From contig BOKM01000001.1 in the NCBI GenBank assembly GCA_016860985.1, positions 591,462 to 655,461 of the forward strand: 64,000 nt of DNA, in the 5' to 3' direction. Of the stretch, positions 40,601-59,693 are shown in pieces. The stretch comes from Patescibacteria group bacterium. GTDB lineage: Bacteria; Patescibacteriota; Dojkabacteria; GCA-002793355. The notes under the pieces were generated by a model. The model searched no databases, had not been told where the DNA came from, and was given only the letters and a program-made list of their open reading frames with translations. A program made the position numbers and the translations under genes. The first letter of the stretch is position 1; every line of letters starts with the position of its first letter.

Positions 40601-41091
40601 CATTAGTTGCAACAACAGCAGAAGTAAATGTACTGAAAGCCAGAACACTCAATGTAAACGATAACTTCCTTGTAGACGACGAAGGGAATGTTTCTACAAG
40701 CGGAGAACTTTTTGCCGGAGCGATAGAAACGCCAGTAATAAAAGGTGTCGCCGGTGGGTTGAATATAAATATTGGAGAGCAAGAAACCTTTACCGTTTCG
40801 GTTGGTGATACAAAGGCAATTGAGGCAAGCGTGAAAGGAGTTAAAGTCAATAACTTATTAGTAAGCGAGCAGCAGGCAGGCAAAGTAACTCTCCCAGCTG
40901 GTCAAACAACCACAACCGTACAAAGCGAATTGGTTGCTCCTGAATCCGTAGTTGTTGTGACTCCAAATATTCCAGTGGTAACAGCTGTCAAGACAAATAA
41001 TGGCTATTTTGTTATTTCGATAGCAACTGCGAGTTCGCAGGATATCGAACTCGCATGGTATGTCGTAAATGTGGATAGAGGAGAAGATTAA
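28684..41091 (+). CDS. giant (4135-aa) secreted mosaic surface protein
   Basis: Single uninterrupted ORF with signal peptide 'MRNRSGQSPSAFLRVTLFALLLTTFSFLGQVRAATTD'. Internal module repeats, YadA-head-like/tail-fibre-like repeats, FN3-like and ConA/LamG-like C-terminal regions; Thr/Gly/Ser-rich. Confidence 0.8.
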   Translation: MRNRSGQSPSAFLRVTLFALLLTTFSFLGQVRAATTDTISFQSKLTNTDGTNISNGTYNFRFRMYSVSSGGTSHWTEDRSLVVNAGVVSVDLGAVQSFPSDLFDYSDLYLQVCFDANGTDLDSSDANCGSGSHRYEEVFSTRKAITAVPVAFRAKYLTDGAGNAYGFNDFFIQGGNAFGAVGVIGTTDNYGLEFRTNNSVVGSFDTSGTFEMAGLAKIGAVAIDDAPSNTYGPALWGGTFNNGLTIKRDLVDLSMQVVTGSLTELNINPSATPIADSVGSLTLVYSNAANSENLSSLYGVYGETIHSSSGTADYLYGGHFSASRDTSTGGAVGTTYGISAYAADGDNIIAGSFVANRQLGATNVDTKGVSSFVSNQYAQSSGVDNTYGSYVSVSRQNATGGTVNTYGIYAELGGDNAGSGVHTTYGLYLENFGGGDTNYAIYTNGTTPSRFGGSITTEGILGIKETGTTPTYYTYFQGGDQAGDITYTLPTASSNGVLTNTGGVLSWAAGGGGISQVGSMTSSVVFGDVTADDDWLGLGASAGRIEFDDLTIDEINILGARVGIGTSTPTDALSLVVNETDNAIWGGGVSVFYDYAPATAGTGYPIGIINSVSVGVGNANGMSGLIGIQNEVSNDGSGDIDNLIGMITSAYNSGSNQVTSIMGASISAGASGGGATNLIGLNVSANDTIPGVTNLYGIYVGAFNDGIGDTQNRYTLYLAEDEDGSTAVNDFGLYSADPNVVNYFAGNVGIGTVSPTSFVLQVAGDIGPDADDTYDLGSSSLRFRDLYLGGNTLHIGSSLTDEGTISYNTTTNVLGISTDSTTNGDIAFFTNQLFLDKSSGNVGIGTTAPLSTLNIADNTGPVTLTSTLLGDPGTTGALGRYAFRAETTEAPSWTTVYNTPEVTVSAFAYDYENGVMYAAAGGGNGVIYRCVVSSGCDVSGDWTEVYDAASLWDQPAIVFDAATNTVFSTSDGVVSRCDTSTGCDAPGDWANVFTSGDDDVLSLGVDTANSVLYVGSAWTQGIIYRCDIAATSCDASGDFTTSFDTPDDGLTSMVYDATNGTMYAGSEWGGEVYRCDTATDCDAGTDWTVSGDLPGSGNLIHALAIDTANDILYASSDDVIYRCPLSSGCDALTDWSISYDTNLSGVYSLGYDTVHERMFAGTGNTGIVYQCATSTGCDSSSDWSVSYDSTQTSILSIGVVNGVVYAGSGNGGFIYRFDDNTSPTYANYAAIEAYAVDTVTGSEDGRLSFKTMLGGTEYESLRVSGNASTFYSSLSLGTSSAGYDATFNASGVNRSLFWESSTGRLIGRDGTNPMVMFTTQPSTADGVFTSFNATGTSKVVQFGNAAMNIGGGGKFRLFNQPTWAVGEDPGAMSAVETLEMNSATGSIGINPSGNASAPTTENIRITTNVSVAADITGLYITGSNPGGSWTAGYFGGNVGIGATGVPNATLNVRGSANQVQFAVRNNGTQSANMVEFQNSSGTALTSINSSGHLDLSGNAIPNAWNTVLKFNNDTLGATELAGGFTNGFIRSSTGRLLVNYITDNAANSLFGGGVNGDAYRRFTMGGDGKWSVGDGTGLQDTNLYRSAANQWTTDDSFRIKGTLGVMEGTGATYYTIFQGGDQAGDITYTLPTASSNGFLQNTGGLLSWAAGSSSVTVGSMTGGTLFADATADDDWLGLGASAGRIAFDDQTTDYVNILDANVGIGIAAPTERLHIANNGDTYLNINATNGSGQISGLKLQRGTWLTDTYTDYSLYVSNGDFMIDTLDDNVTTNVFHIDGATGYTGIGMSTTANRLAVKGGQSVATIGVSNLITADGTFATSSGWTAGSGWSIGSGVVTHTTGNTATLSGTTGATDDDLVYQVNFTVAVTTAGDGFTVSLGGNDAGTTITTAGAKVLYIRPTDLTGTLVFTPGPAGTFVGTIDDVTVYAISQSNADVLVQNSNGTTNPLELRAGGSGALSTFIGTNAGRYNTTTGGGGNGLYNTFVGYNSGRFNATGNSNTTLGHYALARNTTGYSNTAIGTWAMEYNISGYRNSAFGDGALGLNTTGYENSGFGMYSLAENTTGNRNVALGYAALEENTTGHSNISVGSRSGRYLADGSTPNTNSIESIFIGTDTEALAASGTNEIVIGYAAEGLGSNSVVLGNDSIIKTLLRGNVGIGASSSNQLYVYDGQWADTVNPQVLIYGVDNETQVKALSIVDENDNEYFYVRSTTDDRGETYFLGDVGIGVESPAYALSVQAAAGQDAINWRNPTYELGRLGYSTDNDSGWLGLYRNGSSEVEIKANGDSYFNGGDVGIGLDYANTRLHVKGSSSLASVGVTNLVTADGTFATSSGWTEGTGWTIGSGVATHATGNTGILSGTTTATNTSTVYQVNFTTTVTTAGDGLTVSLGGQDAGETITTAGAKTLYIVPSAGTGTLEFKLGALGTFVGTIDDVTVYALTGSTADATFESSNGTSSPIELRAGRSSSNNTFIGTNAGSFSTISGGGTYNTFIGYDSGRYTTTASRNTALGTWSFAQNTTGYRSTAIGYSALSENTTGYRNTALGSNALELNTTGYDNAAVGTYALNVNTTGYENASLGIYSLEANTTGNRNVAIGFAALENNTTGYRNTAIGSRSGRYLADGVTSNTNSISSIFIGSDTEALAASGTNEIVIGYGAEGLGSNSVVLGNDSITKTLLQGNVGIGASSNNQLYVYDSQWADITNPQVLIYGVDNETQVKALSIVDENDNEYFYVRSSPDDKGETYFNGDVGIGVESPAYKLAVGGTLGILEGGSTPSFYTIFQGGDQSANLTYTLPTTSTNGVLTNTAGVLSWVAGGGGGIGQVGSMTGTPAFGDATADDDWLGLGASAGRIAFDDQAIDYVNILDANVGIGYATPTARLDIQGTVTEASLGAEMITATADRDFSSWTGNWSGTDWAPSGDGRARHLISVGFSHPFSLSNAALSAAPASGNVYKITFTVETSTVGSLLVSIGGANSGVLVGKQLNTETHTVVITATGTGALTFTPNTGGWEGYLDDISVVQVTPTNAVEILRNADGTIGSELRAGGSALYNTFVGNSSGQANTTGYNNAALGRQALGHNIAGYRNSAVGYNALYENTIGHDNVAFGTFASRWNNIGNYNTSVGVYALGSSTSGSYNTSIGYQSLYNVTSGNNNTAFGSSVGYSLSTGANNVLFGYQAGDNLTSGSNNIVIGYNVDAPSATASNQLNIGNFIFGTGIDGTGTTVSNGRIGIGTTAPQTTFDVAGSGAFSALGVKYITGSIDPTASTTVTGTGTLFLSEVDPGDRIALDGTATITGSIDPTASTAVTGVGTLFLTELKVGDQITVNSETRTVIAIASNTALTVGVAFTDTANDTSIVRTSTEIRTVVSIASNTSLTVDRAYLDNSADSQITVYRDTFDVTGAALFKGGALFTGLGTPGAPTVTPQGTTGAATWTYKISAVNATGNETVLSADGSTTSGNATLSGTNFNRITWSETPGAAAYRIYRVATGTSPNTSGYIGTVDAHSTLQFDDTGIGIMGGYSGSVFDETSNVGIGTLKTPPRDTLTVDGRINQTWHYMFEDFFGGRANQTANAVINAGNAMSFARIGTSGCTASYPSVANGVYRMTSGATAALGCLLSQAGTAGLPNIKQVDVSLAPVLEVVLNPGATSAKTMIVGFSNQTTATVAEPTAGLYFYASTAGTPSDQWIAVARNASVSTTQATGVTTNTNTYQVLRIEASATHARYYINDVLVADLRTNIPASGATLEFVVGHATTAAAAKTVDIDSIEFWQDDPVVSGMPGQLPAGFDGSNLLQNHMLYSDTTYAKGASEETIPEGYVVSFTDSTEFDDNGKNRLVYNIEKSKAGDSTVLGIGSGLIDPNAPFEIGLNPYAVALYGPTYAWVEEGGETNITLGQELRLSSKSEGVLSVEGGQIIARSLEVVDWNVIDGVEGQSKRKLIKVFAMNGGSQNAALVAGGVSNYFTAVDDSSIQTPYRLIANSLVATTAEVNVLKARTLNVNDNFLVDDEGNVSTSGELFAGAIETPVIKGVAGGLNINIGEQETFTVSVGDTKAIEASVKGVKVNNLLVSEQQAGKVTLPAGQTTTTVQSELVAPESVVVVTPNIPVVTAVKTNNGYFVISIATASSQDIELAWYVVNVDRGED
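34084..36960 (+). repeat. intragenic tandem duplication (two diverged copies of about 1.45 kb each) within the giant gene
   Basis: Encoded blocks 'TADGTFATSSGWTAGSGWSIGSGVVTHTTGNTATLSGTTGATDDDLVYQVNFTVAVTTAGDGFTVSLGG ... VESPAYAL' and 'TADGTFATSSGWTEGTGWTIGSGVATHATGNTGILSGTTTATNTSTVYQVNFTTTVTTAGDGLTVSLGG ... VESPAYKL' are collinear over about 480 aa, with about 80% DNA identity in long stretches. Confidence 0.8.
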
Positions 41092-41107
41092 TATAAGAAA
41101 GGTAAGG

Positions 41108-43516
41108 ATGAACAAGTTATTAAAAGGTATGAGGGCGATGTCGTTAAGCTTCTTGGTGTTAATCGCTTCTTTTGGTGTTGTTCATGCTGCTAATTATGTA
41201 GAAACTACCTCCTATGACCTTGGGTATCCAGGGATTGATCTTGCCGAAGATTCGAGTGGAAACATCTTTATTGTAGATACAAATAATCAGAAAATTAAAA
41301 AATACGACCAAAACGGCAACTACTTATTACAATTTGGTGCCGAAGGAACAGGTAACGGGGAGTTCTCCTATGTTTCTAGTATGGCTATTGACTCTGCAGG
41401 TAATGTGTTTGTTGCAGACGAAGTTCGCGTTCAGAAGTTTTCAAATAATGGAGCCTTTCTCTCCGTATTTGCTAATACAGGTGAGGTAAAAGGAATGGCT
41501 ATTGATGCTGCTGACAATGTATATGTTTCGCTGCCTGTTGATTCGCAGATTGCAAAATACTCCTCTGCCGGTGCATTGCTTGGGTCTTTTGGAACTTTAG
41601 GTGACCAACCAGAAGAGTTTGATTCTCCAGGGAGCCTCACTATTGACGCAGCAGGGAATATTTATGTTGCAGATGAAGCCAATAAACGAATGCAGGTGTT
41701 CTCCTCGGGCTTTGAATACTTGTATGAGGTGACAGGTTTTGGCCCTGCAGAATCATGGTACATTATGCCTTTTGATATTGATGTAAGCCCATCTGGTGAA
41801 ACTTTTGTTGCTGATACCTACAATAATATTGTAAAGGTTTACGATAACACTGGATTGTTTTTGTCCAGTATTGATGTGCCGGGAAATCCGTACGGTATTA
41901 TTGCCAAAAGTAATGTGATTCTTGTAAGCGTTGCCGGAGATACAACGTTACGCAGGTTTACGTTGGATGATTTAGCGCCAACTATAAATGTAACACCGTT
42001 TGATAGTCATACGGTTGCGACAGGTCGACCCACTTTTGAAGGTTTGGCTGTCGATACCATGAGTCCGGTTACTTCAGTTGATTTCAAGGTAGAGGGTGGT
42101 GCGTATACAGGTGATTGGGCCAATTGTTCCCCTTCTGATGATTCGTACGATTCATTATCTGAAGCATTTACATGTATACCAGCCGACAGTATCCCCGTTG
42201 GGAGCTACACACTAACAGTACGGGCGACTGATAATGTTGCAAACACCAACCGTCAAGAAGACGATAATTTATTTACTTATACGTTTTCAATTATTGATGA
42301 TGCTCCTGCTAGTATAGATAACGAAGCGTTTCCGGAGGACAAAACGTTTGATACCACACCATTATTAACGGGAACAGTTGTTGATCTTGTTTCAGGAATT
42401 GTGAGTGTTGAGTACGAGTTAACCTCTGAAGCATCGGGAGTGTGGCACGCCTGTACCTCTGAAGATGGTGCATTTGATGAGCTTGCAGAAGTATATCAAT
42501 GTCAATTAGTTGATGCCTTAAGTGCAGGTATACATATAGTAACGATTCGTTCGACTGATGCTTCAGGTTTTACTAATGAACCATATCCTGATGGAAATGC
42601 GTGGGAATATACCTTTGAAGTAAGAGCGCTGACGACCCCAACTGTGGCAACAGGTACAGCGAGTTCAATTACTTCCAGCTCTGCAGTGATTGGCGGGACT
42701 GTTTCAAGCAATGGAGGGAGTGTTGTAACTGAGCGGGGTATTGTGTATTCAGCAACAGTAAGTACCCCTACGGTTTCTGATATAAAAGTAGCAAGTGGTA
42801 TGGGGGTAGGAGTATACACAGCGAGCCTAAGTAGTCTTGCTGCATCAACTCATTACTACGCGCGTTCATATGCAATAAACGCACAAGGAACATCGTACGG
42901 CTCCGTTCTCGAATTCACTACGCTTGCAGCTGCACCTACAACACCTGCCTCGCTACAGAATGTGTATGTCACGTTTGCAAAGTTTAAATATAATAAATAT
43001 GTATCTCCTTCTGCTCTTCGCACGGGGGATACGGCGTATATAAAGAATTTCAATACGAGTAAGTTGAAATTGTTACAGGTTTTTCTTTATGACTATGCAA
43101 AAAAAGGGAATCAAGGGTTTACCAAGTCAAAGGTGACAACATCGTCAATGTTTCTTAGAACAACTAGCCTTCTACCGACGGGTAAGCGCTACGCGTATGT
43201 CTTTAAATTCCAAGATAAAGCAACAGGGATCATCGCAACCAAATATTTTGTTGTATATACAACAAAAGTATGGCAGGGAAAGTCGGTTTTAGGAGTTACA
43301 ACGACAACGGAAACTGGAGTGCAGAATAAGCCGGGGCCTGACCCAAGTGAAGTTGCGCCGAATTATGTTGCCAATCCACTTCCACAGTATAGTGGAGATT
43401 GGAATAGAATATGGTCTAACGTTGTTGATTCAGGCGTGCTACCTTATATTGCTGTTGCTATTTGTATTGGAGGAGTTGTGATTGTCTTTCTAAGAAATAT
43501 AAAGCATGAATCCTGA
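41108..43516 (+). CDS. NHL-repeat (six-bladed beta-propeller) surface protein with Ig-like domains and C-terminal TM anchor
   Basis: Start at ATG 41108 with RBS-like AAGAAAGGTAAGG upstream; signal peptide 'MNKLLKGMRAMSLSFLVLIASFGVVHA'. Repeated 'GN.F.VAD..N.R.Q.F' NHL blades, e.g. 'SGNIFIVDTNNQKIKKYDQNG' and 'AGNVFVADEVRVQKFSNNG'. C-terminal 'VLPYIAVAICIGGVVIVFLRNIKHES'. Confidence 0.75.
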   Translation: MNKLLKGMRAMSLSFLVLIASFGVVHAANYVETTSYDLGYPGIDLAEDSSGNIFIVDTNNQKIKKYDQNGNYLLQFGAEGTGNGEFSYVSSMAIDSAGNVFVADEVRVQKFSNNGAFLSVFANTGEVKGMAIDAADNVYVSLPVDSQIAKYSSAGALLGSFGTLGDQPEEFDSPGSLTIDAAGNIYVADEANKRMQVFSSGFEYLYEVTGFGPAESWYIMPFDIDVSPSGETFVADTYNNIVKVYDNTGLFLSSIDVPGNPYGIIAKSNVILVSVAGDTTLRRFTLDDLAPTINVTPFDSHTVATGRPTFEGLAVDTMSPVTSVDFKVEGGAYTGDWANCSPSDDSYDSLSEAFTCIPADSIPVGSYTLTVRATDNVANTNRQEDDNLFTYTFSIIDDAPASIDNEAFPEDKTFDTTPLLTGTVVDLVSGIVSVEYELTSEASGVWHACTSEDGAFDELAEVYQCQLVDALSAGIHIVTIRSTDASGFTNEPYPDGNAWEYTFEVRALTTPTVATGTASSITSSSAVIGGTVSSNGGSVVTERGIVYSATVSTPTVSDIKVASGMGVGVYTASLSSLAASTHYYARSYAINAQGTSYGSVLEFTTLAAAPTTPASLQNVYVTFAKFKYNKYVSPSALRTGDTAYIKNFNTSKLKLLQVFLYDYAKKGNQGFTKSKVTTSSMFLRTTSLLPTGKRYAYVFKFQDKATGIIATKYFVVYTTKVWQGKSVLGVTTTTETGVQNKPGPDPSEVAPNYVANPLPQYSGDWNRIWSNVVDSGVLPYIAVAICIGGVVIVFLRNIKHES

Positions 43517-45897: not shown

Positions 45898-46239
45898 AGA
45901 ATCTTTAAAAGGTTCTGAGTCTGAGGAAATGGAAAAATTGCATTATCATAATTAGTCAATGTCGGCTTCCAATATAAACGGAGCCAAAAAGCATTGCATA
46001 CACCTCGGTTCTTTGATAAAATCTGCTTACGCTCGTAAAGAAAGCAGAAGAGAGTGAAGGAATTATGGAGTTTTTCGCAAGGAAAATTCCCAGTTCTTTT
46101 ACTGAAAGGAGGTTCGCCTCTGATAAAGGATGTGCGTTGGTTTTCTTCGGAATTCTGACCTCTCTCATTTGCGCAAGCAAATGAGGGAAAACACATTTGA
46201 ACATTGACAATTGAATTAGGTTTTGTGACCGTACAAAAA

Positions 46240-49370
<3,131 letters not shown>

Positions 49371-49588
49371 TTGTTTGGTCACATACCTATTCAGTTGCTT
49401 TTACATTAGACTCTGTCTAGTACGAAAGCAACTGAAAACACGAATTTCAGACTTGTCTGTGTATAACTTGTTATACAACCTACTTGTAGGTAAAGGAGTG
49501 TTATTCAATTGTCAGTGTTTGCATTTTTCTGTAAACACTTTTCAACTCTATCTAATAAAAATAGACAATGCTCTGTTTTTTATATGCG

Positions 49589-50261: not shown

Positions 50262-51914
50262 ATGAATCGACGTGTCGTTGCCTTTCTAAAAAAATTACCC
50301 GGACTCGCAGTTATAGTTGTTGCAGGAACCATTTCATATTCGGTCGTCGCTGACTCTATCAATACACAAGTTACGGTTTCAAACTCGTCACCTACGTTTT
50401 CAGTCGCACCTGCAGAATCACCTGTGTCTGATACAACAACTCCAACCAACGTTGGAAATGTTGTCACGTTTCAGGCAACTGCCACCGATGCAAATAATGA
50501 TTCGTATCGGCTTGCAATCTGCAAAACAAATGCAGTAACCCCAAATGGTGTAGGTGCTCCCACATGTGATGGCGGAAGTTGGTGTGTTTCTTCTACAGCT
50601 GCCTCAGGTGCGCAAGCCTCCTGTACCTATACAGCTTTGTCAGGGGATGCCGAATCAAATGATTGGTTTGCTTTTGTTTGTGATTCAACAACCGGAAGTA
50701 CGTGTTCGTCGTCAAGCCAAGGGAGTGGGAGCGCAGGCTCTCCTTTTGCAGTTAATCACGCGCCTGCCTTTACTGCAATGAACTCTACCGCGGGGGATCC
50801 AGGAGCAACAATAACCTTCACCGCAACGGCCAGCGATGCTGATACAAGTGGAAGTGCAGATACCGTTCTCCTTGTTGTTTGTTCAGTATCTGGAGCAACT
50901 GCCAGTGGATGTACTATACCTGCAAATCAACTTTGTATTTCGACAGCGGTATCGAGCAATCCTACCTGTGATTACACCCTACCCGCGGTAAAAAATAGCG
51001 GTACAACGAGCTATTATTCCTATGTTTATGATAGTCACAATTTAGGGGCAACCAACAATCCTTTTCCTTCAAAATCCTACACAACTAATAATGTTTCGCC
51101 CTCAGTGTCAAATGTTGTCGTAAATGGTGCGGCAGACATTACGCTGACGGCAGGTACAACAACTAACGTTACGGTTACGGGCACAATTACCGATGCTAAC
51201 TCTTGTCAAAATATAAGTTCGGTGAAAACAAGCCTTTACCGTTCTGGAGTGGGCTATTCTGCGTGTGATACCGTTGGTGAGTTAAATTATAACTACTGTT
51301 ATTCACTCGTTACCTGTTCAGTTTCTGGAGGTTCCTGTACTGGTGGGACTGACGCATCTGCTGACTACTCTTGTACCGTAACGATGCAATATCATACAGA
51401 TCCAACCGATGTGTCGACTGTATATTCTGCCGAAAACTGGCTTGGAACGATTTTGGTAACCGATTCAGGTGCGTTAACTGCAACTGCTGAGTCGAGTACT
51501 CCCATAGAAGTTGCAAGTCTTACTGCACTCAGCCTTGACGCGCTTGTTTCCTATGGCAACATAGGCTTAGGGCAAGATTCTGGAGCGACTAATGCCACAA
51601 CAACCGTAACGGCACTTGGTAATGTCGGGATTGATACTGAATTGTCCGGTACATCAATGACAAATGGAACCGATACCATTCCTGTCGCCAACCAAAAATA
51701 TGGAACAACGGCTTTCACCTATTCGTCGGGGGGGACTGCGCTAAGCACAACACCCGTTGAAATCGAACTAAATGTGCTTAAGACAACGAGTGTGGGAACT
51801 CCGGCAACGAAGAGCCTGTATTGGGGTATTGCAATTCCAGGCAGTATAAGTTTTGGTACGTATACAGGGACAAATAACATCACAGCCATAAAAGGTGAAT
51901 CAAATGAATGGTAA
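50262..51914 (+). CDS. Cys-rich secreted surface protein sharing a C-terminal domain with the 1597-aa Gly-rich protein
   Basis: ATG 50262 preceded by GAAGAG, signal peptide 'MNRRVVAFLKKLPGLAVIVVAGTISYSVVA', many Cys pairs. The C-terminal half ('NVTVTGTITDANSCQNISSVKTSLYRSGVG ... SLYWGIAIPGSISFGTYTGTNNITAIK') parallels the C-terminus of the 52835-57604 product. Confidence 0.55.
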   Translation: MNRRVVAFLKKLPGLAVIVVAGTISYSVVADSINTQVTVSNSSPTFSVAPAESPVSDTTTPTNVGNVVTFQATATDANNDSYRLAICKTNAVTPNGVGAPTCDGGSWCVSSTAASGAQASCTYTALSGDAESNDWFAFVCDSTTGSTCSSSSQGSGSAGSPFAVNHAPAFTAMNSTAGDPGATITFTATASDADTSGSADTVLLVVCSVSGATASGCTIPANQLCISTAVSSNPTCDYTLPAVKNSGTTSYYSYVYDSHNLGATNNPFPSKSYTTNNVSPSVSNVVVNGAADITLTAGTTTNVTVTGTITDANSCQNISSVKTSLYRSGVGYSACDTVGELNYNYCYSLVTCSVSGGSCTGGTDASADYSCTVTMQYHTDPTDVSTVYSAENWLGTILVTDSGALTATAESSTPIEVASLTALSLDALVSYGNIGLGQDSGATNATTTVTALGNVGIDTELSGTSMTNGTDTIPVANQKYGTTAFTYSSGGTALSTTPVEIELNVLKTTSVGTPATKSLYWGIAIPGSISFGTYTGTNNITAIKGESNEW

Positions 51915-52851
51915 GATAAATCTTTATATTGCTGTCGCGTTATTCATCTTTTTTGCGGGGGTACAGCTGGTTTTCTTTCCTGATTATGCGCATGCTGCAT
52001 CATCAAGTATCGGAGTTTCCCCGTCACAGATTACGAACGATATTCTTACCCCTGGGGCAGAGTATGAAACAAAATTGACGATTTCACGTGCATCAGCAAC
52101 TATTGAAGTTGTTGCAAAGATTGAAATAAGTGGACAGGAAATCTCAAACTGGGTAACTTTTCCCGCTGGAGACAGTGTTGTAATCGCTAAGGGCGAACAA
52201 CGAAAAGAGATAACGGTCAAAATCAAGGTACCGCAAGACGCAGCCTACAGAAAATACGAAGGAAGTCTCCGTTTTACGGTAACACAGCAAACACAAGGGC
52301 AAGTTAACATTGTTCCAGGTGTTCGTGTTGATGTTAAACTCACGGTCACTGATAAAATAACGGAATCCATTAAGGTTTTGTACGTACAAGCCAAAGATTC
52401 TCCGTTTCTTGCACCATATCATGTGATGGTAAAAGTCAAGAATTTAGGAAACGCCGAAGCTTCACCTACAAAGCTAAACTTGGTAATCTTAGACATTAAT
52501 GAGAAGGAGCTGAGAACTTTATCCGCCCAGTTTAATGAAAAAGTAGCGGCGTTTAGTGAAAAAGATTATGATATTTACCTGCAAGATCCAACGCCACTTT
52601 CAATAGGAGAGTACTGGGCAAGAGTTACCGTATTTGGGGGAGAGAAAGAATTGTATTCAGATAAATTCTCCTTTAGAATTACGGAATCGACTCCATCAGT
52701 CAGTGTATCACCTTCAGTAGATAAAGGTTCAATTTTTGCAAGCAATATTTTGATGATTACCTTAGTTTTTGTGGGCATACTTACACTGGTTGGATCAATC
52801 GCGATAATCGTTGTATTTAGGCGCAAAAACAAAGATGAAGAAGGTACCTAA
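51895..52851 (+). CDS. bitopic membrane-anchored protein (N-terminal signal, C-terminal TM) in the surface-protein operon
   Basis: 'MNQMNGKINLYIAVALFIFFAGVQLVFFPDYAHA' signal and C-terminal 'ILMITLVFVGILTLVGSIAIIVVFRRKNKDEE'. Overlaps both neighbours, by 20 nt upstream and 17 nt downstream. Confidence 0.5.
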   Translation: MNQMNGKINLYIAVALFIFFAGVQLVFFPDYAHAASSSIGVSPSQITNDILTPGAEYETKLTISRASATIEVVAKIEISGQEISNWVTFPAGDSVVIAKGEQRKEITVKIKVPQDAAYRKYEGSLRFTVTQQTQGQVNIVPGVRVDVKLTVTDKITESIKVLYVQAKDSPFLAPYHVMVKVKNLGNAEASPTKLNLVILDINEKELRTLSAQFNEKVAAFSEKDYDIYLQDPTPLSIGEYWARVTVFGGEKELYSDKFSFRITESTPSVSVSPSVDKGSIFASNILMITLVFVGILTLVGSIAIIVVFRRKNKDEEGT

Positions 52852-55800
52852 ATGGCTTGCTGTTAGTTATTCCGTTGCCTCGATTGTGGTTTTTCTTGTT
52901 ATTTCTACATTTATTCATTTTTATCCCTCACCTCCTAAATCAAATGCATGGACAGAAACCTGCACGTGGACTGGAGCAACCGGTGGTGCATGGGAAACAA
53001 GTACCAACTGGGATTGCAATAGTGTTAATAGAGTACCAACTGCAACTGATCGCGTAGTTATAGATTCTAATGTAACAGTAAATATCAACGCCACCACAAC
53101 TATAGATGATTTGGTAATTGGAAACTCAGGAGGTACAACTTCACCGATTTTAAACTTTAATTATGATGCAATTACAAACGGAGCACTTATTGTTGATGAT
53201 TCAAATGCAGTTATTTATTCAAATGCACAAGTAACGCATACGTTGGGCGCAACAGCCGAGACAGCAAAGGTCAATATAACGGTGACGAATGGTGACATGA
53301 CGGTTACTGGGAGTATAAATGTAAACGAAAAAGGGTTTCGTCCTGGATATGGAACAGGAAAGGGGAATAATGGAAATGGTGCAGGTGGTGGCGCATATGG
53401 AGGAGGTGGTGGAAGTGGTGCAAGTGCAACTGGGGGAATTCCGTATGGCTCAGCAGCGCAACCTGTTAATTATGGAAGTGGTGGTGGAACAGATGGGACA
53501 GGGCTAAACAAAGGGGCGGGAGGTGCCGCAAAAATAACGATTGGAGGAACACTAACCGTTAATGGTTCTATTACTGCAACGGGGGGAATATCAATTACTG
53601 GAACTTCAGATGTAGGGAGTGGCGCTGGCGGCAGTATTTGGATTACTGCAACAACTATAACAGGTGCGGGCTCAATAACTGCAAACGGAGGCAATGGTGG
53701 AACAGGTGGTCAGTTAGCGGGTGCGGGCGGTGGTGGTCGTGTTGCCCTTTACTACACAACCGACAGTATGAGTGGAACAGTTTCCGCAAAATCAGGAGGA
53801 ACCACAAGTGGTACTTCAGTAATTGGAGCTGCTGGGACTATATATCGAGAAGTAAATGGAGGAATCAAAACAATTTTTATAGACAATGTTGGGCAGAATA
53901 ACAACGATACCTATTCTAAAATTGAAACAGGACTGACGCTCGATACGCTGACGGTCGCGAGTTACGGGTATTTATGGCTTGACGTAACACTCACCACTAC
54001 GACACTTACGTTAGAAAATAACACAAGGCTAACTGTTGATGCCGCTGCAAACTGTACATACACCACCTTTAATCTTGGTACGCCAACAACGATTATGGAT
54101 AGGGGTGGCACATTTGCATTACTTAGCGATGGTGGTTCACTTACTGTTGCTGCCTCAAACACACTGATTGCAGATTATCCTCGTACTTATACGAGTGTCA
54201 CGATAAACGGAACACTTACCACAAGTCAGAACTCAAGTGCCGAAACTTATAAGCTTTCTCACACTACATCAGGTGACTACACAATTTCTTCAACTGGTGT
54301 AATCAACGTTAGCGAGAAAGGTTACACGCCAGGTTACGGCCCAGGCAAGGGGGTTAACGGAAATGGAGCAGGCGGTGCAGGGCATGGCGGAGGGGGCGGA
54401 AGAGGAACTAGTGCAGTTGGTGGGACAACATACGGCTCTACAACGCAACCAAATAATATAGGGAGTGGTGGCGGTACTGATGGTCTAGGGCTAAACAAAG
54501 GTGGAGGAGGGGCGGTTAAATTGGACGTTGGGGGTACGTTAACAATAAACGGTAGTATTACAGCAAATGGTGGAGCATCACTAACAGGAACAAGCGATGT
54601 TGGTGGCGGAAGTGGCGGAAGCATATGGCTTATTGCATCTACATTATCTGGTTCTGGAGCTCTTTCTGCAAATGGAGGAAATGGGGGGCCTTCAGGGCAA
54701 AACTCAGGTGCAGGTGGTGGTGGGAGAATTGCTATCTATTACACAACTGACACCTCGACGCTGACAGTGTCTGCAAAGAGTGGAACAACTGGTGGAGGAA
54801 CATGGGTTATTGGTGCTGCAGGTACAATCTACAAAGAGTCTACAGGTGGCACAAAGAGTGTGACTATAGATAATGGAAATTTAGAGAACAACGATAATTA
54901 CGCAACAATTCAATCTGGTTTAAACCTTACCACCTTGACCGTAACGAATAAGGGATCGTTATGGGCAGATAATTCAACTACAGCAACGACAGTTAATCTA
55001 ACTAACTCAGGAAAACTTGCAATAGCGTCAACTGGTAGTATCTCTTATACAAACCTAAACTGGTCAACATCTGGAATTTTAATAGATAGAGGAGGGACGT
55101 TCTCATTACTAAGTGGAGGAGCTGTACTTACTGTTCCGACAAGTACAGTGCTTTTTGCTGATACTGCAAGAACATACACGTCTGTTACTGTTGATGGAAC
55201 AGTGACGCATACAGCAAATGGTACAGCTGAAACGTATAAAACTAATCATACAACATCAGGTGACTACACAATATCGGCAACTGGATCGATTGACGTAACG
55301 GGAAAGGGGTTTGCAGGTGGGTACGGTACGGGCAAGGGAACCAACGGTAACGGTGCTGGTGGCGCTGGATATGGTGGAGAAGGTGGAAACGATGCATATG
55401 CAAATATCGCTGGAGGAACAACATATGGTTCGCTCACAAATCCACTCGATTCCGGGAGTGGTGGCGGAATTAACGAAGGTGCACAAAATTATGGAGGAGG
55501 AGTTGTGAAATTATCGATTGGGGGAACGTTGACAGTCGATGGCCCGATTTACTCTAACGGACAAGCAAATCAAGGCGGTGGGACTGACGATGTTGGTGGC
55601 GGGTCCGGCGGGTCCATCAACATTACGGCGTCAACACTTGCTGGAAATTCAACAGTCGCCGCTAATGGTACGAATGCGTATAGGTATGGAGGAGCAGGCG
55701 GTGGGGGAAGAATTGCAGTGTACTATACAAACAACACTTCTTCGATTTCCTATCAGGCATACGGAGGAACTCAGGGTGGTTCGGGGGGGAACATCGGCGC

Positions 55801-57604
55801 AGCAGGAACAATTTACCAAAAACCAGATTCTAGCAACGGAACTGTTATTGTGAACAATGGAAATCGCAATGCCGGGGCAAAAAAAACAGCGAGCTTACCA
55901 GCTAGCCTTTCCATAGCAACGCTTGATATTCTAAATTACGGGAGGTTGCACTTTACGACATCGATTACGGCAACAACAATTAATCTCTCTGCAAACGCTA
56001 CATTAGTGAATGAGGCAACGGGGACAACCGCAAATACGGAATTTAACTGGACCGGGCCTTCAATTTTATATGACAGAGGTGGTACTTTTGGGACTTTAAG
56101 TGGTGGTGGTGCGTTAAATGTTCCCACAAATACAACGCTTTATGCTGACGTGGCAAGAAGTTACAGTTCAGTAACAGTCGATGGTACTATCACTCACTCA
56201 AGCAATACGACTGCTGAGACTTATAAAATTGCGTATACCGTTACAAACAACGTGACAGTAGCCGCAGGAGGTAAAATTGATGTATCAAGCCGCGGGTATG
56301 CTTCTTCAGAAGGTACAGGGCAAGGAGTTGATCATGCTTCGGGTTCAGGTGGTGGAGGTTATGGAGGGAACGGAGGCGCAGGGCTTTCAGGTGCAGGTGG
56401 TTCATCCTATGGTTCTGCTACAGCACCTGCAAATATTGGTTCTGGAGGTGGAGCAGATGGTGCAGGAAATGGAGGGCTCGGTGGTGGAAATGTCACAATC
56501 AATGCAGGAGGAACAGTAACCATTACGGGCAGTATTCTTGCTGATGGTGGGAGTTACGTTGCAAACGACTCAGGAGGTGGAGCAGGTGGTACGATTAGTA
56601 TTAACGCCGGTACCTTTACTGGAGCTGGAACTGTGTATGCACGTGGAGGAGCTGGAAGACCCGGTACTGGAGGTGGTGGTAGCGGCGGAAGAATTGCCAT
56701 TTTTTACGCTGGTTGGGGCTGGACTGGCAATACAATGACTGATGCAGTAGCCACAAGCGGCGGAAGTGGTTATGCTACTGGTTCGGTTGGAACTGTTTAC
56801 CTAGAATCATCAAATAACTTACCTTCAGTTTCCGGTGTTGCCATAAATTCAGGGGCTGCTGCAATTGACTTAACCGCTGGGAGTTCCTTAAATGTGAGTT
56901 GTACGGGAACAGTATCAGACCTTGATGGATATTTGGATATTACCTCAGTAACGGCGGTGCTTTATCGATCAGGAGTTGGGGCTGGTGCAGCAGATAACGA
57001 CAACAATCACTATTCAAGTACCTGTTCGGGAGGAGCCGGAAGCGGGACAACGCAACCATTTACCTGTACGTTCCCCGTGTGGTTTATTGCAGATCCTACG
57101 GACGTTGGTTCAAATAATGCAGCGGACGACTGGACCTGTAAAATAACTCCATATGATGGCGATGGCACTGGAAGCGATGGAACCGATACCATTGAAATGA
57201 ACTCACTATCTGCAATATCTGTTACTCCAAGTAGTATTGATTTTAATGGAGCACTCTCCGCAGGGGGAAACTCAGGGAGTAATAACGATACGACTGAATT
57301 TTATAATATTGGCAATGTGGCCATAGACGTTGAGGTTTCTGGATCAAACTTGTGTACAGATTATCCAACTTGCGCAACTAATGTAATTAGTACGGGGAAT
57401 ATTGAGTATAAGGATACGGCGTTCACATATGGAGCAGGGATCGACCTCACAAACTCTCCTGTATTTAATGGGTACAACATTGCTAAATCGACGGTTCGAC
57501 CTTCAAACCAGTCAAGAACAACCTATTGGGGAATTGGGATACCATTATCTGTTACCTCTGGAACATATACTGGGGTTGCGACTTTTACGGCGTTACAGCA
57601 CTAA
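52835..57604 (+). CDS. giant glycine-rich repeat protein (1590 aa), predicted beta-helical surface fibre
   Basis: ATG 52835 with signal anchor 'MKKVPKWLAVSYSVASIVVFLVISTFIHF'. Four copies of an approximately 330-aa unit beginning 'TAETYK' with 'EKGFxPGYGTGKGxNGNGAGG.GYGG.GG', 'GSGGGTDG.GLNKG.GGA.K' and 'GGSGGSIW.TA.T..G.G...ANGGNGG' up to 'GAGGGGR.A.YYT'. C-terminal domain shared with the 50262-51914 product. Confidence 0.7.
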   Translation: MKKVPKWLAVSYSVASIVVFLVISTFIHFYPSPPKSNAWTETCTWTGATGGAWETSTNWDCNSVNRVPTATDRVVIDSNVTVNINATTTIDDLVIGNSGGTTSPILNFNYDAITNGALIVDDSNAVIYSNAQVTHTLGATAETAKVNITVTNGDMTVTGSINVNEKGFRPGYGTGKGNNGNGAGGGAYGGGGGSGASATGGIPYGSAAQPVNYGSGGGTDGTGLNKGAGGAAKITIGGTLTVNGSITATGGISITGTSDVGSGAGGSIWITATTITGAGSITANGGNGGTGGQLAGAGGGGRVALYYTTDSMSGTVSAKSGGTTSGTSVIGAAGTIYREVNGGIKTIFIDNVGQNNNDTYSKIETGLTLDTLTVASYGYLWLDVTLTTTTLTLENNTRLTVDAAANCTYTTFNLGTPTTIMDRGGTFALLSDGGSLTVAASNTLIADYPRTYTSVTINGTLTTSQNSSAETYKLSHTTSGDYTISSTGVINVSEKGYTPGYGPGKGVNGNGAGGAGHGGGGGRGTSAVGGTTYGSTTQPNNIGSGGGTDGLGLNKGGGGAVKLDVGGTLTINGSITANGGASLTGTSDVGGGSGGSIWLIASTLSGSGALSANGGNGGPSGQNSGAGGGGRIAIYYTTDTSTLTVSAKSGTTGGGTWVIGAAGTIYKESTGGTKSVTIDNGNLENNDNYATIQSGLNLTTLTVTNKGSLWADNSTTATTVNLTNSGKLAIASTGSISYTNLNWSTSGILIDRGGTFSLLSGGAVLTVPTSTVLFADTARTYTSVTVDGTVTHTANGTAETYKTNHTTSGDYTISATGSIDVTGKGFAGGYGTGKGTNGNGAGGAGYGGEGGNDAYANIAGGTTYGSLTNPLDSGSGGGINEGAQNYGGGVVKLSIGGTLTVDGPIYSNGQANQGGGTDDVGGGSGGSINITASTLAGNSTVAANGTNAYRYGGAGGGGRIAVYYTNNTSSISYQAYGGTQGGSGGNIGAAGTIYQKPDSSNGTVIVNNGNRNAGAKKTASLPASLSIATLDILNYGRLHFTTSITATTINLSANATLVNEATGTTANTEFNWTGPSILYDRGGTFGTLSGGGALNVPTNTTLYADVARSYSSVTVDGTITHSSNTTAETYKIAYTVTNNVTVAAGGKIDVSSRGYASSEGTGQGVDHASGSGGGGYGGNGGAGLSGAGGSSYGSATAPANIGSGGGADGAGNGGLGGGNVTINAGGTVTITGSILADGGSYVANDSGGGAGGTISINAGTFTGAGTVYARGGAGRPGTGGGGSGGRIAIFYAGWGWTGNTMTDAVATSGGSGYATGSVGTVYLESSNNLPSVSGVAINSGAAAIDLTAGSSLNVSCTGTVSDLDGYLDITSVTAVLYRSGVGAGAADNDNNHYSSTCSGGAGSGTTQPFTCTFPVWFIADPTDVGSNNAADDWTCKITPYDGDGTGSDGTDTIEMNSLSAISVTPSSIDFNGALSAGGNSGSNNDTTEFYNIGNVAIDVEVSGSNLCTDYPTCATNVISTGNIEYKDTAFTYGAGIDLTNSPVFNGYNIAKSTVRPSNQSRTTYWGIGIPLSVTSGTYTGVATFTALQH

Positions 57605-59511
57605 AGTTTTTCTCCTCCGATTCTCCAGTAGCAAATGCCTTTAATGCCGTAGTTTTGGGCAAGCTTGAGCCTATTATCTATTGCCTGCTTGTTAAGATAA
57701 TACATTACCCGTTCAACTCCGTTATACTTAAACTCTGCTCGCACTTCTTTTATCGTGCTGTCATAGGTTTCTCGATAATACGTGCTGTGGTTCTTTATGT
57801 ATGCAATATTGTCATGTTGCGGAGATATGGTGTTTTTTTGTTCGCCCGAAGAAAGTGACTGGTCGTTATTAGTTCCAGCTAGGTTTTTACTCTTTGGCTT
57901 CGGCCATCCATGTGCATACAAAGGGAGTGCAAGTACCACTTTTTCTGCGGGCATTTGGCTTAATGCGTAGCGTATCAATGTTTCGTTCCATCCGTAGGGA
58001 GAGAGAGGTCCAGGCTGTTTACTACCTTGCCCAGTAAAATCATAGGCCATGATTCTGAACTCATCTACGATTGCGCCGATTGCTTTCCAGTCCTGAGCCT
58101 CATGTGTTTGTGGGAGAAATGAGTAAATTTTTCGGTCATCAATTTTTGGGAGTGCGGTGAATACAAGCTTTTTGTTGTTTTTGTGAAGTTCATCGGCAAG
58201 TTTTGACAGAAATTGGAGGAGCTCGTCTTTATCGGAAGCATAGGTACTTTCATAGTCAAGGTCAATTCCATCGTAGCCGTTTTTGGTCACAACACTCACT
58301 ATTTCCTTGATATGCGCGTCCATGTGTTTGTTTAGTATACTGCTGAGAATGTCAGCGTCGAAGAGTGAAATTGTGGGAATTAACGTTATGTTGTTGCGCT
58401 GTACAAGATCAAGCAACACTCTGTTGTTAAGCGTCGGCTCAACATTTAAAGAACCGTTGGCTTTTGGTGTAAACCAAACAGGAGAGAGTGTACGGTACTT
58501 CTTTGGATTAGCTCTTATTGAGGTGAGTGCTGGTGTCATTCCCCAATCGGGAATCCATGACATTTCTTCCGGAATATTCGGGGAACCGTTATACGAGACA
58601 GCGTTTTCAGTGGGTAAGTCGGAGTTAAACTGGACTCTAGATTCAAAGAAGGTACTAAATATAGTGCTACCGATCTTTGGCCAAATCCTAAGTATCAATG
58701 TCAGTTGCTGTGAAGCTAAGGGAACTGTAGGTTGAAAATAGTCGCCTTTTTGGGATGTTGCAAGTTTTCCAGTGGCGAAAATTCTTGCTCCTTTCTCGTC
58801 AAGTACCTCTATGCTGTAGGCAGCTTGTGACAACAATGAGTTATCTAGTAGTGTTGAAGAACTCCAATCAAAAACAAATGTTCCGTAGGGATTTGAAACG
58901 GAGGGTAATGCTACTCCATAATAAGCCAAGAACGGGTTGAGAGCATTGTAGTAATAATCGCCGTGAGTAGTCGCTATAAGATAATCACTCTGGCATTTTT
59001 GATTTTTGATATCACAGCTAGTCTTGAAGATTTCTCGAGATTTTATGTCTCCGTTACATGTATATAATAATCCATCTGGGGTGTGTATTGATAATTCGCT
59101 GGCAGACTCAGAGTTTACTGCTTGCTCGAATATTTCACATAAATTGTCTGTGAGCTTGTCTTGGCGCGAGGTGACTTCTAGGGCAGGATACTTTTTTTGT
59201 ATGGAGAGTAAATAGTCTTCCGAAGGGGAGTCTAATAGCAGTGTGGTTATTCCTGTTGATAGCAATATCACTTCCTCAGTATTATTCGGCCAGTAGTTGT
59301 TGGGTAGGATAATTGCCTTTTTGATACTATCCTTGTTTTGCGCATTAGGAGTAGGAGTAACTATCCCGTTTTGTGATACAGGAATACTCCCTATTTGTTC
59401 GATTTGTTTTAGTTTGCCGTGCCAAAGTTTTAAATCTCCATAAACTCCGAGTGATAGCACGATCGCAAACAATAGCAGAATGCTGAAAATCTGAGCTCTT
59501 TGAGTGTTCAT
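57601..59511 (-). CDS. glycoside hydrolase family 18 (chitinase-like) secreted/anchored enzyme
   Basis: N-terminal signal anchor 'MNTQRAQIFSILLLFAIVLSLGVYG'. GH18 catalytic motif 'YDGIDLDYE' (DxxDxDxE) with surrounding TIM-barrel pattern. Confidence 0.75.
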   Translation of the reverse strand: MNTQRAQIFSILLLFAIVLSLGVYGDLKLWHGKLKQIEQIGSIPVSQNGIVTPTPNAQNKDSIKKAIILPNNYWPNNTEEVILLSTGITTLLLDSPSEDYLLSIQKKYPALEVTSRQDKLTDNLCEIFEQAVNSESASELSIHTPDGLLYTCNGDIKSREIFKTSCDIKNQKCQSDYLIATTHGDYYYNALNPFLAYYGVALPSVSNPYGTFVFDWSSSTLLDNSLLSQAAYSIEVLDEKGARIFATGKLATSQKGDYFQPTVPLASQQLTLILRIWPKIGSTIFSTFFESRVQFNSDLPTENAVSYNGSPNIPEEMSWIPDWGMTPALTSIRANPKKYRTLSPVWFTPKANGSLNVEPTLNNRVLLDLVQRNNITLIPTISLFDADILSSILNKHMDAHIKEIVSVVTKNGYDGIDLDYESTYASDKDELLQFLSKLADELHKNNKKLVFTALPKIDDRKIYSFLPQTHEAQDWKAIGAIVDEFRIMAYDFTGQGSKQPGPLSPYGWNETLIRYALSQMPAEKVVLALPLYAHGWPKPKSKNLAGTNNDQSLSSGEQKNTISPQHDNIAYIKNHSTYYRETYDSTIKEVRAEFKYNGVERVMYYLNKQAIDNRLKLAQNYGIKGICYWRIGGEKL

Positions 59512-59543: not shown

Positions 59544-59572
59544 TTGCCAACACGTTTTTGGCGTGTTATAAT
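59544..59572 (+). promoter_or_regulatory. sigma70-like promoter for the unlinked 5S rRNA (TTGCCA-17-TATAAT)
   Basis: -35 TTGCCA 59544-59549, -10 TATAAT 59567-59572, 5 nt before the 5S 5' end. Confidence 0.5.
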
Positions 59573-59577
59573 TCTTT

Positions 59578-59693
59578 GCTTGGTGACTAGAGCGGAGTGG
59601 CACCACCCGATCCCTTTCCGAACTCGGAAGTGAAACACTCCAGCGCCGAAGATACTTGGATATTTCTCCTGGGAAAATAGGTCGTTGCCAAGC
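59578..59693 (+). rRNA. rrf: 5S rRNA, unlinked from the 16S-23S operon
   Basis: 'GCTTGGTGACTAGAGCGGAGTGGCACCACCCGATCCCTTTCCGAACTCGGAAGTGAAACACTCCAGCGCCGAAGATACTTGGATATTTCTCCTGGGAAAATAGGTCGTTGCCAAGC'. The conserved 'CCGAACTCGGAAGTGAAAC' loop C/helix III is present, helix I pairs the termini, and a T9 run follows. Confidence 0.8.

Follow-up and report, generated by a model that had tools for sequence, protein, structure and literature searches.

A putative surface display module of Patescibacteria built around a remote homologue of the WxLIP membrane anchor

Patescibacteria, or the candidate phyla radiation (CPR), are mostly obligate epibionts with tiny genomes, and little is known of the way in which their surface is built and contact with the host is made. 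Here we describe three adjoining genes, called A, B and C, found in a window of 64,000 nucleotides of a Dojkabacteria genome (positions 591,462 to 655,461 of contig BOKM01000001.1, assembly GCA_016860985.1), and compare them with the closest described system, the WxL clusters of Firmicutes. The logic of those clusters is that of small WxL proteins, large WxL proteins and the protein WxLIP (PMC10599100, PMC9772566); the clusters meant are Csc of Lactiplantibacillus plantarum and loci A-C of Enterococcus faecium, in which WxLIP has the architecture DUF916-DUF3324-TMH (TMH, transmembrane helix). WxLIP has been predicted by AlphaFold to donate a strand that completes the sandwich of the WxL domain (PMC10599100), and a WxLIP-WxL complex of an Enterococcus protein is deposited as PDB 9i25. 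Our literature search found no paper describing PDB 9i25 or 9i1y, and none combining CPR or Patescibacteria with WxL, DUF916 or DUF3324. Our reading, to which we give a probability of about 0.55, is that the trio is a surface display module of a monoderm CPR bacterium with a WxL-cluster-like organisation, in which B would tether the proteins that share a C-terminal domain (CTD) present in both A and C.

The evidence for this reading begins with protein B. The initial annotation had given B an N-terminal signal and a C-terminal membrane anchor, and both are indeed present, as a hydrophobic signal and a transmembrane (TM) helix followed by RRKNKDEEGT. Its AlphaFold2 (AF2) model, built from a 12-sequence alignment with a mean pLDDT (the model's per-residue confidence score) of 82.5, consists of an N-terminal signal helix, two immunoglobulin (Ig)-like sandwiches (residues 39-151 and 159-263), a linker and a helix at residues 279-315. 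When this model was searched with Foldseek against 350,542 PDB chains, WxLIP of Enterococcus faecium appeared at ranks 2, 3 and 5 with E between 5e-10 and 1e-8 (entries 9i25_C, 'bound to long WxL', and 9i1y). We also assembled a WxLIP reference set by scanning metagenomes for the motif NQIDKxxxYFDLK (PMC10599100), which returned 29 Firmicutes WxL loci with the order large WxL, two or three small WxL, WxLIP, verified by Pfam matches to PF06030 and PF11797 (WxLIP) and to PF13731 (WxL). Alignment of the B family with WxLIP by hhalign gave 96.7% and E = 4.1e-10 over 230 columns, from the end of the signal peptide to the end of the second Ig-like domain, and 97.2% with E = 4.6e-11 when 46 B sequences were used. 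Taken singly, the first Ig-like domain aligned with PGBD (14.6%, E = 1.8e-3) and the second with HBD (44.4%, E = 2.3e-4), in collinear order, and the hhalign controls pairing B or WxLIP with the CTD or with the N-terminal half of A (A_N) were not significant (0.2-2.3%). A WxLIP hidden Markov model (HMM) run against 4775 CPR open reading frames (ORFs) placed the B of the window at the top (1.6e-6), with 14 of the top 15 hits belonging to the B family, and reciprocally the B HMM picked up WxLIPs among Firmicutes ORFs. B has the architecture of WxLIP as well, namely a signal peptide, two Ig-like domains in PGBD-HBD order and a C-terminal TM helix. Because fold search, collinear hhalign and reciprocal HMM searches agree, B is, as judged by these comparisons, a remote homologue of WxLIP that lies outside the curated Pfam boundaries.

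Several members of the B family are longer than the B of the window. Beyond the first TM helix, 24 of 46 B homologues carry an SH3b domain (best E = 2e-12; for example L011:11693-13081, L015:4176-6071 and L017:2508-4388, with 21 others), and 13 B homologues also give GW-domain matches. By hydropathy the SH3b-bearing forms mostly have two TM segments, and those of loci L015 and L017 have six; the long forms of L005, L009 and L030 show a single TM segment by a crude hydropathy count. The even number of TM helices would place SH3b outside the cell, an argument for a helix of B embedded in the membrane of the bacterium itself and for long forms that touch the wall as well. A PDB profile search with the B alignment matched the SH3b tail only. 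We also considered a kinship with Peptidase_M73 (TasA/camelysin) and rejected it, as weak matches occurred in only 3 of 46 B homologues (best 7e-5) and in neither A nor C.

The second line of evidence is the domain shared by A and C. BLASTP with compositional adjustment aligned residues 276-544 of A with 1327-1588 of C at 39% identity and 57% positives (E = 3e-35), a significance far beyond compositional bias, so that the homology of the two C-terminal regions proposed in the initial annotation is borne out. The CTD is about 270 residues long, disulfide-rich and made of two Ig-like domains. The motifs quoted earlier for it (NV.VTGT..D, LYRSGVG and YWGI.IP...GTYTG) are real, as they fall on invariant or near-invariant columns of an alignment of 70 A-type and large-type sequences, in which P280, D311, Y347, N454 and G536 are invariant and four Cys, W393, W521, K507 and others are conserved in at least 90% of the sequences. 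The last of these motifs was discarded as a specific signature, as it corresponds to the generic E-set hairpin IxVPxxxxxGxYxGxxT of GH123_N, NEW3 and CARDB; an E-set-type hairpin is present in the first domain of B too. Weak matches to GH123_N_2 (PDB 5l7v) occur in 18 of 70 CTDs, and no curated Pfam or NCBIfam family scored above cut-off. A relation to the WxL domain was not detected either: PF13731 matched 0 of 70 CTDs, hhalign of the CTD against Pfam-verified small WxL gave 0.2% while the positive control of small against large WxL gave 97.7% (E = 1.4e-12), and the cross HMM searches between CTD and WxL were empty. By its sequence, therefore, the CTD is not a WxL domain and would represent a partner domain with no curated family.

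The CTD is found on many kinds of protein. Large CTD proteins (600-3800 residues) carry DUF2341, Laminin_G_3, fn3, Beta_helix/NosD or Ig_Rha78A_N passengers, or none known; they have ordinary signal peptides, and their C-termini have neither LPXTG nor TM helix, as is also the case for A (...GESNEW) and C (...FTALQH). A profile search further revealed CTD-only proteins of 297-330 residues, in which a short strand lies between signal peptide and CTD, and loci L110 and L111 have the order large CTD protein, small CTD-only protein, B. The earlier proposal of a shared module serving as a common anchoring or docking device gains from this presence of the CTD on many different passengers next to an anchored protein, which suggests that the CTD behaves like a portable docking module. 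The domain is not always C-terminal, as in the 809-residue protein L110:5487-7913 it is internal (residues 333-595) and followed by about 210 residues.

We then looked at the conservation of the trio as a gene set. One genome per GTDB species was scanned with the A alignment, giving 76 loci with flanks of up to 10 kb, and all their ORFs were searched with three HMMs (A_N, CTD and B); an A-type gene was defined as one combining A_N and CTD in fewer than 700 residues. Results showed an A-type gene in 63 loci, with B adjoining in 52 of them; in 9 of the other 11 the contig ends at most 310 nt from A, leaving B adjacent in 52 of 54 testable loci. A second CTD protein was present in 51/63 loci and the full set in 46/63. 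The labels of these loci span the CPR lineages Dojka-, Sung-, Peregrini-, Kerfeld-, Doudna- and Shapirobacteria as well as Paceibacteria, and the named homologues belong to Candidatus Dojkabacteria and other Patescibacteria. The co-occurrence of the three genes in related genomes, which had been put forward as a check, is thus seen across CPR lineages, and the synteny kept in the testable loci speaks for a functional unit. The order A-B-C had been likened in its logic to pilus or fibre operons; A-B-Large, the order of the window, is a minority order (6 loci, as for A-B-A) and Large-A-B is the commonest (16 loci). A is frequently duplicated (A-B-A, L-A-A-B, A-A-A-B). When the remaining ORFs were clustered, families beyond CTD and B each reached 13 of 79 loci at most, and the identifiable minor neighbours were housekeeping genes (enolase, TsaD, Sua5/TsaE, thioredoxin, ABC/FtsX); sortase, usher and signal peptidase (SipW) were not found among neighbouring genes within 10 kb in the 76 loci, and the neighbourhood clustering contained no assembly ATPase near the module. 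Since no further conserved neighbour emerged from this clustering, the module is self-contained, with at least two CTD proteins and one B. A protein of about 380 residues with a weak Big_6 match lies directly after B in 13 loci, mostly labelled Paceibacteria (for example L055:12744-13889), and may be a lineage-specific fourth component; the window has no such gene.

In the mechanism that we infer, A and C would be exported by Sec without an anchor of their own, each ending in the CTD. B would be a type-I membrane protein with its Ig domains facing outward and its C-terminal TM helix in the membrane of the cell itself. If the analogy with WxLIP holds, the Ig domains of B would bind the CTDs and hold A and C at the envelope, possibly through beta-strand augmentation. 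The repeat fibre of C would then project outward as the likely adhesin of an epibiotic cell, and the highly conserved A would be co-displayed as a constant partner. The products had been described as extracellular (A, C) or membrane-anchored (B), which agrees with our results, while the proposed 'tip' and 'adaptor' roles are guesses.

A number of observations weigh against this reading. The Foldseek list for B also contains the Vpr fibril, RbmA, CEP192 and PapD-like chaperones with E of 1e-10 to 1e-6, and two-Ig folds are common. The B of the window matches neither PF06030 nor PF11797, staying below the Pfam gathering scores; among 46 family members PF11797 (WxLIP_HBD) gives weak matches in 4 (best E = 0.015) and PF06030 in none. 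B does not contain NQIDKxxxYFDLK, having SSSIGVSPSQITNDILTPG at that position, and just after it the only stretch common to B and WxLIP is 'L.(M/T)PG......L.(I/V)S(N/R)'. The physical contact between B and the CTD is proposed by analogy and, as the CTD has no sequence similarity to WxL, the analogy has to be carried by B and by the gene logic; the WxL-WxLIP mechanism is itself mostly in silico (PMC10599100). Moreover, a simple 1:1 tethering does not explain why A is so highly conserved and why it keeps a conserved free N-terminal strand.

This last point leads to protein A, which is better conserved than any other protein of the module, and by far better than B or the passengers, with more than 200 full-length homologues and 44-98% identity among the 120 listed. 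A contains 16 Cys, and its AF2 model (66-sequence alignment, mean pLDDT 91.8) has beta structure throughout, arranged in four Ig-like domains; of these, D1 and D2 form the Cys-rich, cadherin-like A_N, and D3 and D4 the CTD. All four are modelled as full seven-strand sandwiches with pLDDT above 90 and no obvious missing strand. A_N shows an internal repeat (28% identity, E = 1.7e-4) with the junction motifs VNHxPxF and NNVSPSV. This half of A is also embedded in giant CPR proteins of 1200-4082 residues with no CTD, mainly labelled Staskawiczbacteria (L063:3704-13495, L066:7709-12910, and others in L067 and L070-L076). In the strand that precedes D1, residues A30, T35, V37, V39, N41 and P44 are near-invariant, and residues 25-38 are disordered in the AF2 model (pLDDT below 50). 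Immediately behind the signal peptide stands the family motif TTxVTVGNxxP, present in 58 of 74 A-type genes of the loci, in 108 of 120 database homologues, in 5 of 6 small CTD-only proteins, in 0 of 22 large CTD proteins and in 3 of 542 background ORFs. The strand is homologous to the one at the D2-D3 junction (SYTTNNVSPSV) and therefore looks like the orphan last strand of a missing domain, which makes it a candidate beta-augmentation or donor strand.

Pilus-type polymerisation, considered in the initial annotation, found no support; sortase, usher and LPXTG were not found. The N-terminal strand could nonetheless serve an usher-less strand-exchange polymer of monoderm CPR bacteria, in which A and the small subunits would join head-to-tail, each inserting its strand into the CTD of its neighbour. 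The large CTD protein, an acceptor with no donor strand, would be the distal tip adhesin, and membrane-fixed B would donate a strand to cap the CTD of the basal subunit, thereby chaperoning and anchoring the fibre. Such a polymer would account for the distribution of the motif, frequent on A-type and small proteins, missing from every large one and rare in the background, for a strand that is near-invariant and yet disordered in the model, and for its apparent origin in a missing domain; the frequent duplication of A and its conservation far above that of B and the passengers are as expected for a self-assembling subunit, and B resembles the PapD/FimC chaperones (E about 1e-6), with WxLIP predicted to donate a strand to WxL (PMC10599100). 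However, the AF2 model shows the four domains of A complete, the acceptor groove in the CTD is hypothetical, no usher or assembly ATPase was found nearby, and B or the wall would serve the strand just as well as a docking site. On balance we regard this polymer as unlikely; if true, an ancient monoderm assembly principle based on an 'anchored chaperone' would have branched into the WxL clusters and the CPR system.

The CTD might instead bind the wall or S-layer itself, like SLH, and attach A and C directly, leaving B as a separate co-encoded factor for instance one that helps in folding or stabilisation, or an adhesin in its own right. WxL domains have been reported to bind peptidoglycan alone (PMC9772566), the second domain of the CTD carries a hairpin common to carbohydrate-associated E-set domains, and the residues strongly conserved in both CTD classes would suit a constant ligand such as the wall. 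Against this, the near-obligate adjacency of B together with its homology to the partner-binding WxLIP points to a direct partnership, and the CTD matches no known wall-binding family; we hold direct wall binding to be improbable. That there is no module at all, A and C being merely paralogous surface proteins and B an unrelated neighbour, is hardly credible, as the reading frames overlap, the adjacency is kept across many CPR lineages in permuted orders always involving the same three families, and the loci are not near-identical copies of one mobile element (A identities 34-63%).

The features of the trio are listed in the table below. The three ORFs lie co-directionally at the coordinates first annotated. 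Of their overlaps, that of 17 nt between B and C, set by the ATG at 52835, was correct, and the one between A and B has to be revised. The A/B junction reads AAAAGGTGAATCAAATGAATGGTAA and contains AAGGTGA 5 nt before the ATG at 51904, and the homologue P0001, 94% identical to B, begins MNGK, which makes this ATG the most likely start of B and the overlap 11 nt rather than 20; the alternative GTG at 51895 falls within the AAGGTGA ribosome-binding site. Scanned against Pfam and NCBIfam, A, B and C stayed below every curated cut-off, and phmmer, queried with A and with B, retrieved no match from the PDB.

Table. Positions of the genes and protein features of the trio in the window; residue numbers refer to the proteins.
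Feature	Position	Strand	Description
Gene A	50262..51914	+	ORF, 550 aa (amino acids); secreted, Cys-rich, all-beta, four Ig-like domains
Mature N-terminal strand of A	50352..50390	+	aa 31-43, DSINTQVTVSNSS; family motif TTxVTVGNxxP
A_N	50391..51086	+	tandem cadherin-like Ig domains, aa 44-165 and 166-275; invariant Cys pattern
CTD of A	51087..51911	+	aa 276-550, two Ig-like domains; BLASTP against C, 70-sequence alignment
Shine-Dalgarno-like AAGGTGA	51892..51898	+	read from the sequence; inside the end of gene A, 5 nt before the ATG of B
Gene B	51904..52851	+	315 aa; 318 aa if GTG 51895 is used
Conserved long hairpin of B	aa 134-145		GQVNIVPGVRVD
TM helix of B	52726..52824	+	hydropathy and AF2 helix; followed by RRKNKDEEGT (basic cytoplasmic tail)
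Gene C	52835..57604	+	ORF, 1589 aa; signal sequence, Gly-rich repeat passenger, CTD
Repeats of C	53192..56830	+	3.7 tandem Gly/Thr-rich repeats of about 325 aa: aa 120-450, 458-779, 790-1108, 1119-1332
CTD of C	56813..57601	+	aa 1327-1589; BLASTP and HMM of the C-terminal half of A (A_C), E = 3e-48

The passenger region of C contains 22% Gly, and BLASTP of its first repeat against C returned the other copies at 58.5%, 44.8% and 43.5% identity (E from 1e-71 to 1e-8). Judging from composition and repeat pattern, these repeats would form a beta-helix-like fibre. Homologues of C occupy the same position in loci L003 and L012.

Other genes of the window were examined around the trio. A giant gene upstream of the rRNA operon (28684-41091) had been counted together with it as coding for extracellular fibre-like proteins; a link between the two found no support, and as a candidate member of the module the gene was rejected: its product of 4135 residues resembles neither CTD, A_N nor B and matches nothing in Pfam or NCBIfam. 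A gene for an 815-residue NHL/beta-propeller protein (41069-43516) overlaps it by 23 nt, and the two form a separate surface-protein pair that is not part of the trio. The window also carries a bacterial rRNA operon whose 5S gene (59579-59693) is found 10.2 kb downstream of the 23S gene (46234-49375), with five protein genes between them, namely DUF6624, the trio A, B and C, and a GH18 gene in antisense. The last of these (57601-59511, minus strand) encodes a secreted or membrane protein of 636 residues with a C-terminal GH18 domain (E = 3e-25) and converges on gene C, the two ends overlapping by 4 nt. Immediately upstream of 5S lies a promoter-like TTGCCA-17-TATAAT (59544-59572; 11 of 12 consensus matches), and this near-consensus site suggests that the 5S gene is transcribed on its own. 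The 23S match measures 3142 nt against a model of 2925 positions, and the excess of roughly 217 bases may come from an insertion or an intervening sequence; rRNA insertions are often reported in CPR.

If display anchored by B is the right reading, the module has a broader meaning for CPR surfaces. The B family comprises 1947, 910 and 309 cluster representatives at 50% identity for E <= 1e-3, 1e-10 and 1e-30, respectively, and with 910 clusters at E <= 1e-10 the module is one of the more widespread sets of surface genes in this analysis. What is new, as far as sequence comparison goes, is the pairing of a WxLIP-type anchor with another partner domain, in another and very deep lineage, so that the anchoring principle would extend beyond Firmicutes and to a non-WxL partner. 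The link between B and WxLIP gives the module a testable mechanism, the anchor-mediated display of interchangeable adhesins, and the CTD offers a sequence signature for cataloguing displayed, probably host-binding, CPR proteins.

Comparison with known surface systems sets the trio apart from most of them. Unlike TasA/camelysin fibres, it shows no Peptidase_M73 in A or C and no signal peptidase nearby. With sortase pili and LPXTG adhesins it has in common secreted multi-Ig-domain proteins of a monoderm cell encoded in a small operon, but A and C have no LPXTG and no sortase lies within 10 kb in the 76 loci. The resemblance to chaperone-usher pili (PapD/FimC) lies in a two-Ig-domain protein that probably complements the fold of its partners and in subunits with a conserved free N-terminal strand, which the large partner (compare the tip adhesin) does not have. 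In contrast to those pili there is no outer membrane and no usher was found, and B is membrane-anchored and related in sequence to WxLIP rather than to PapD. Chaperone-usher pilins combine an N-terminal donor strand with an incomplete Ig fold; A and the small proteins have a candidate strand of this kind, and the domains of A are modelled complete.

The WxL clusters come closest. Both systems have a single anchor with a signal peptide, two Ig-like domains and a TM helix, that of the clusters being homologous to B by the comparisons above, and both have at least two secreted partners with a common C-terminal domain and no covalent anchor, one short or constant and one long with variable passengers, in a monoderm envelope. 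Even the commonest order, large, small, anchor, is the same, with L110 and L111 as exact counterparts. On the other hand, the CPR partner domain is an Ig-like pair of about 270 residues and not WxL, B stays below Pfam thresholds with no NQIDKxxxYFDLK, the usual CPR partner is no bare domain but a four-domain protein of 550 residues, SH3b is added in half of the B homologues, and the host lineage is CPR and not Firmicutes. The CPR module also includes no LPXTG protein or sortase; in several Firmicutes WxL loci (L080-L108) the gene next to WxLIP on its downstream side encodes a sortase (for example L080:5774-6580, E = 1.6e-19). With one component homologous and the defining WxL domain missing, the trio is not to be filed as a WxL cluster. 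The initial annotation could match it to no named system; B now proves to be a remote homologue of WxLIP, and the gene logic corresponds to that of the WxL clusters.

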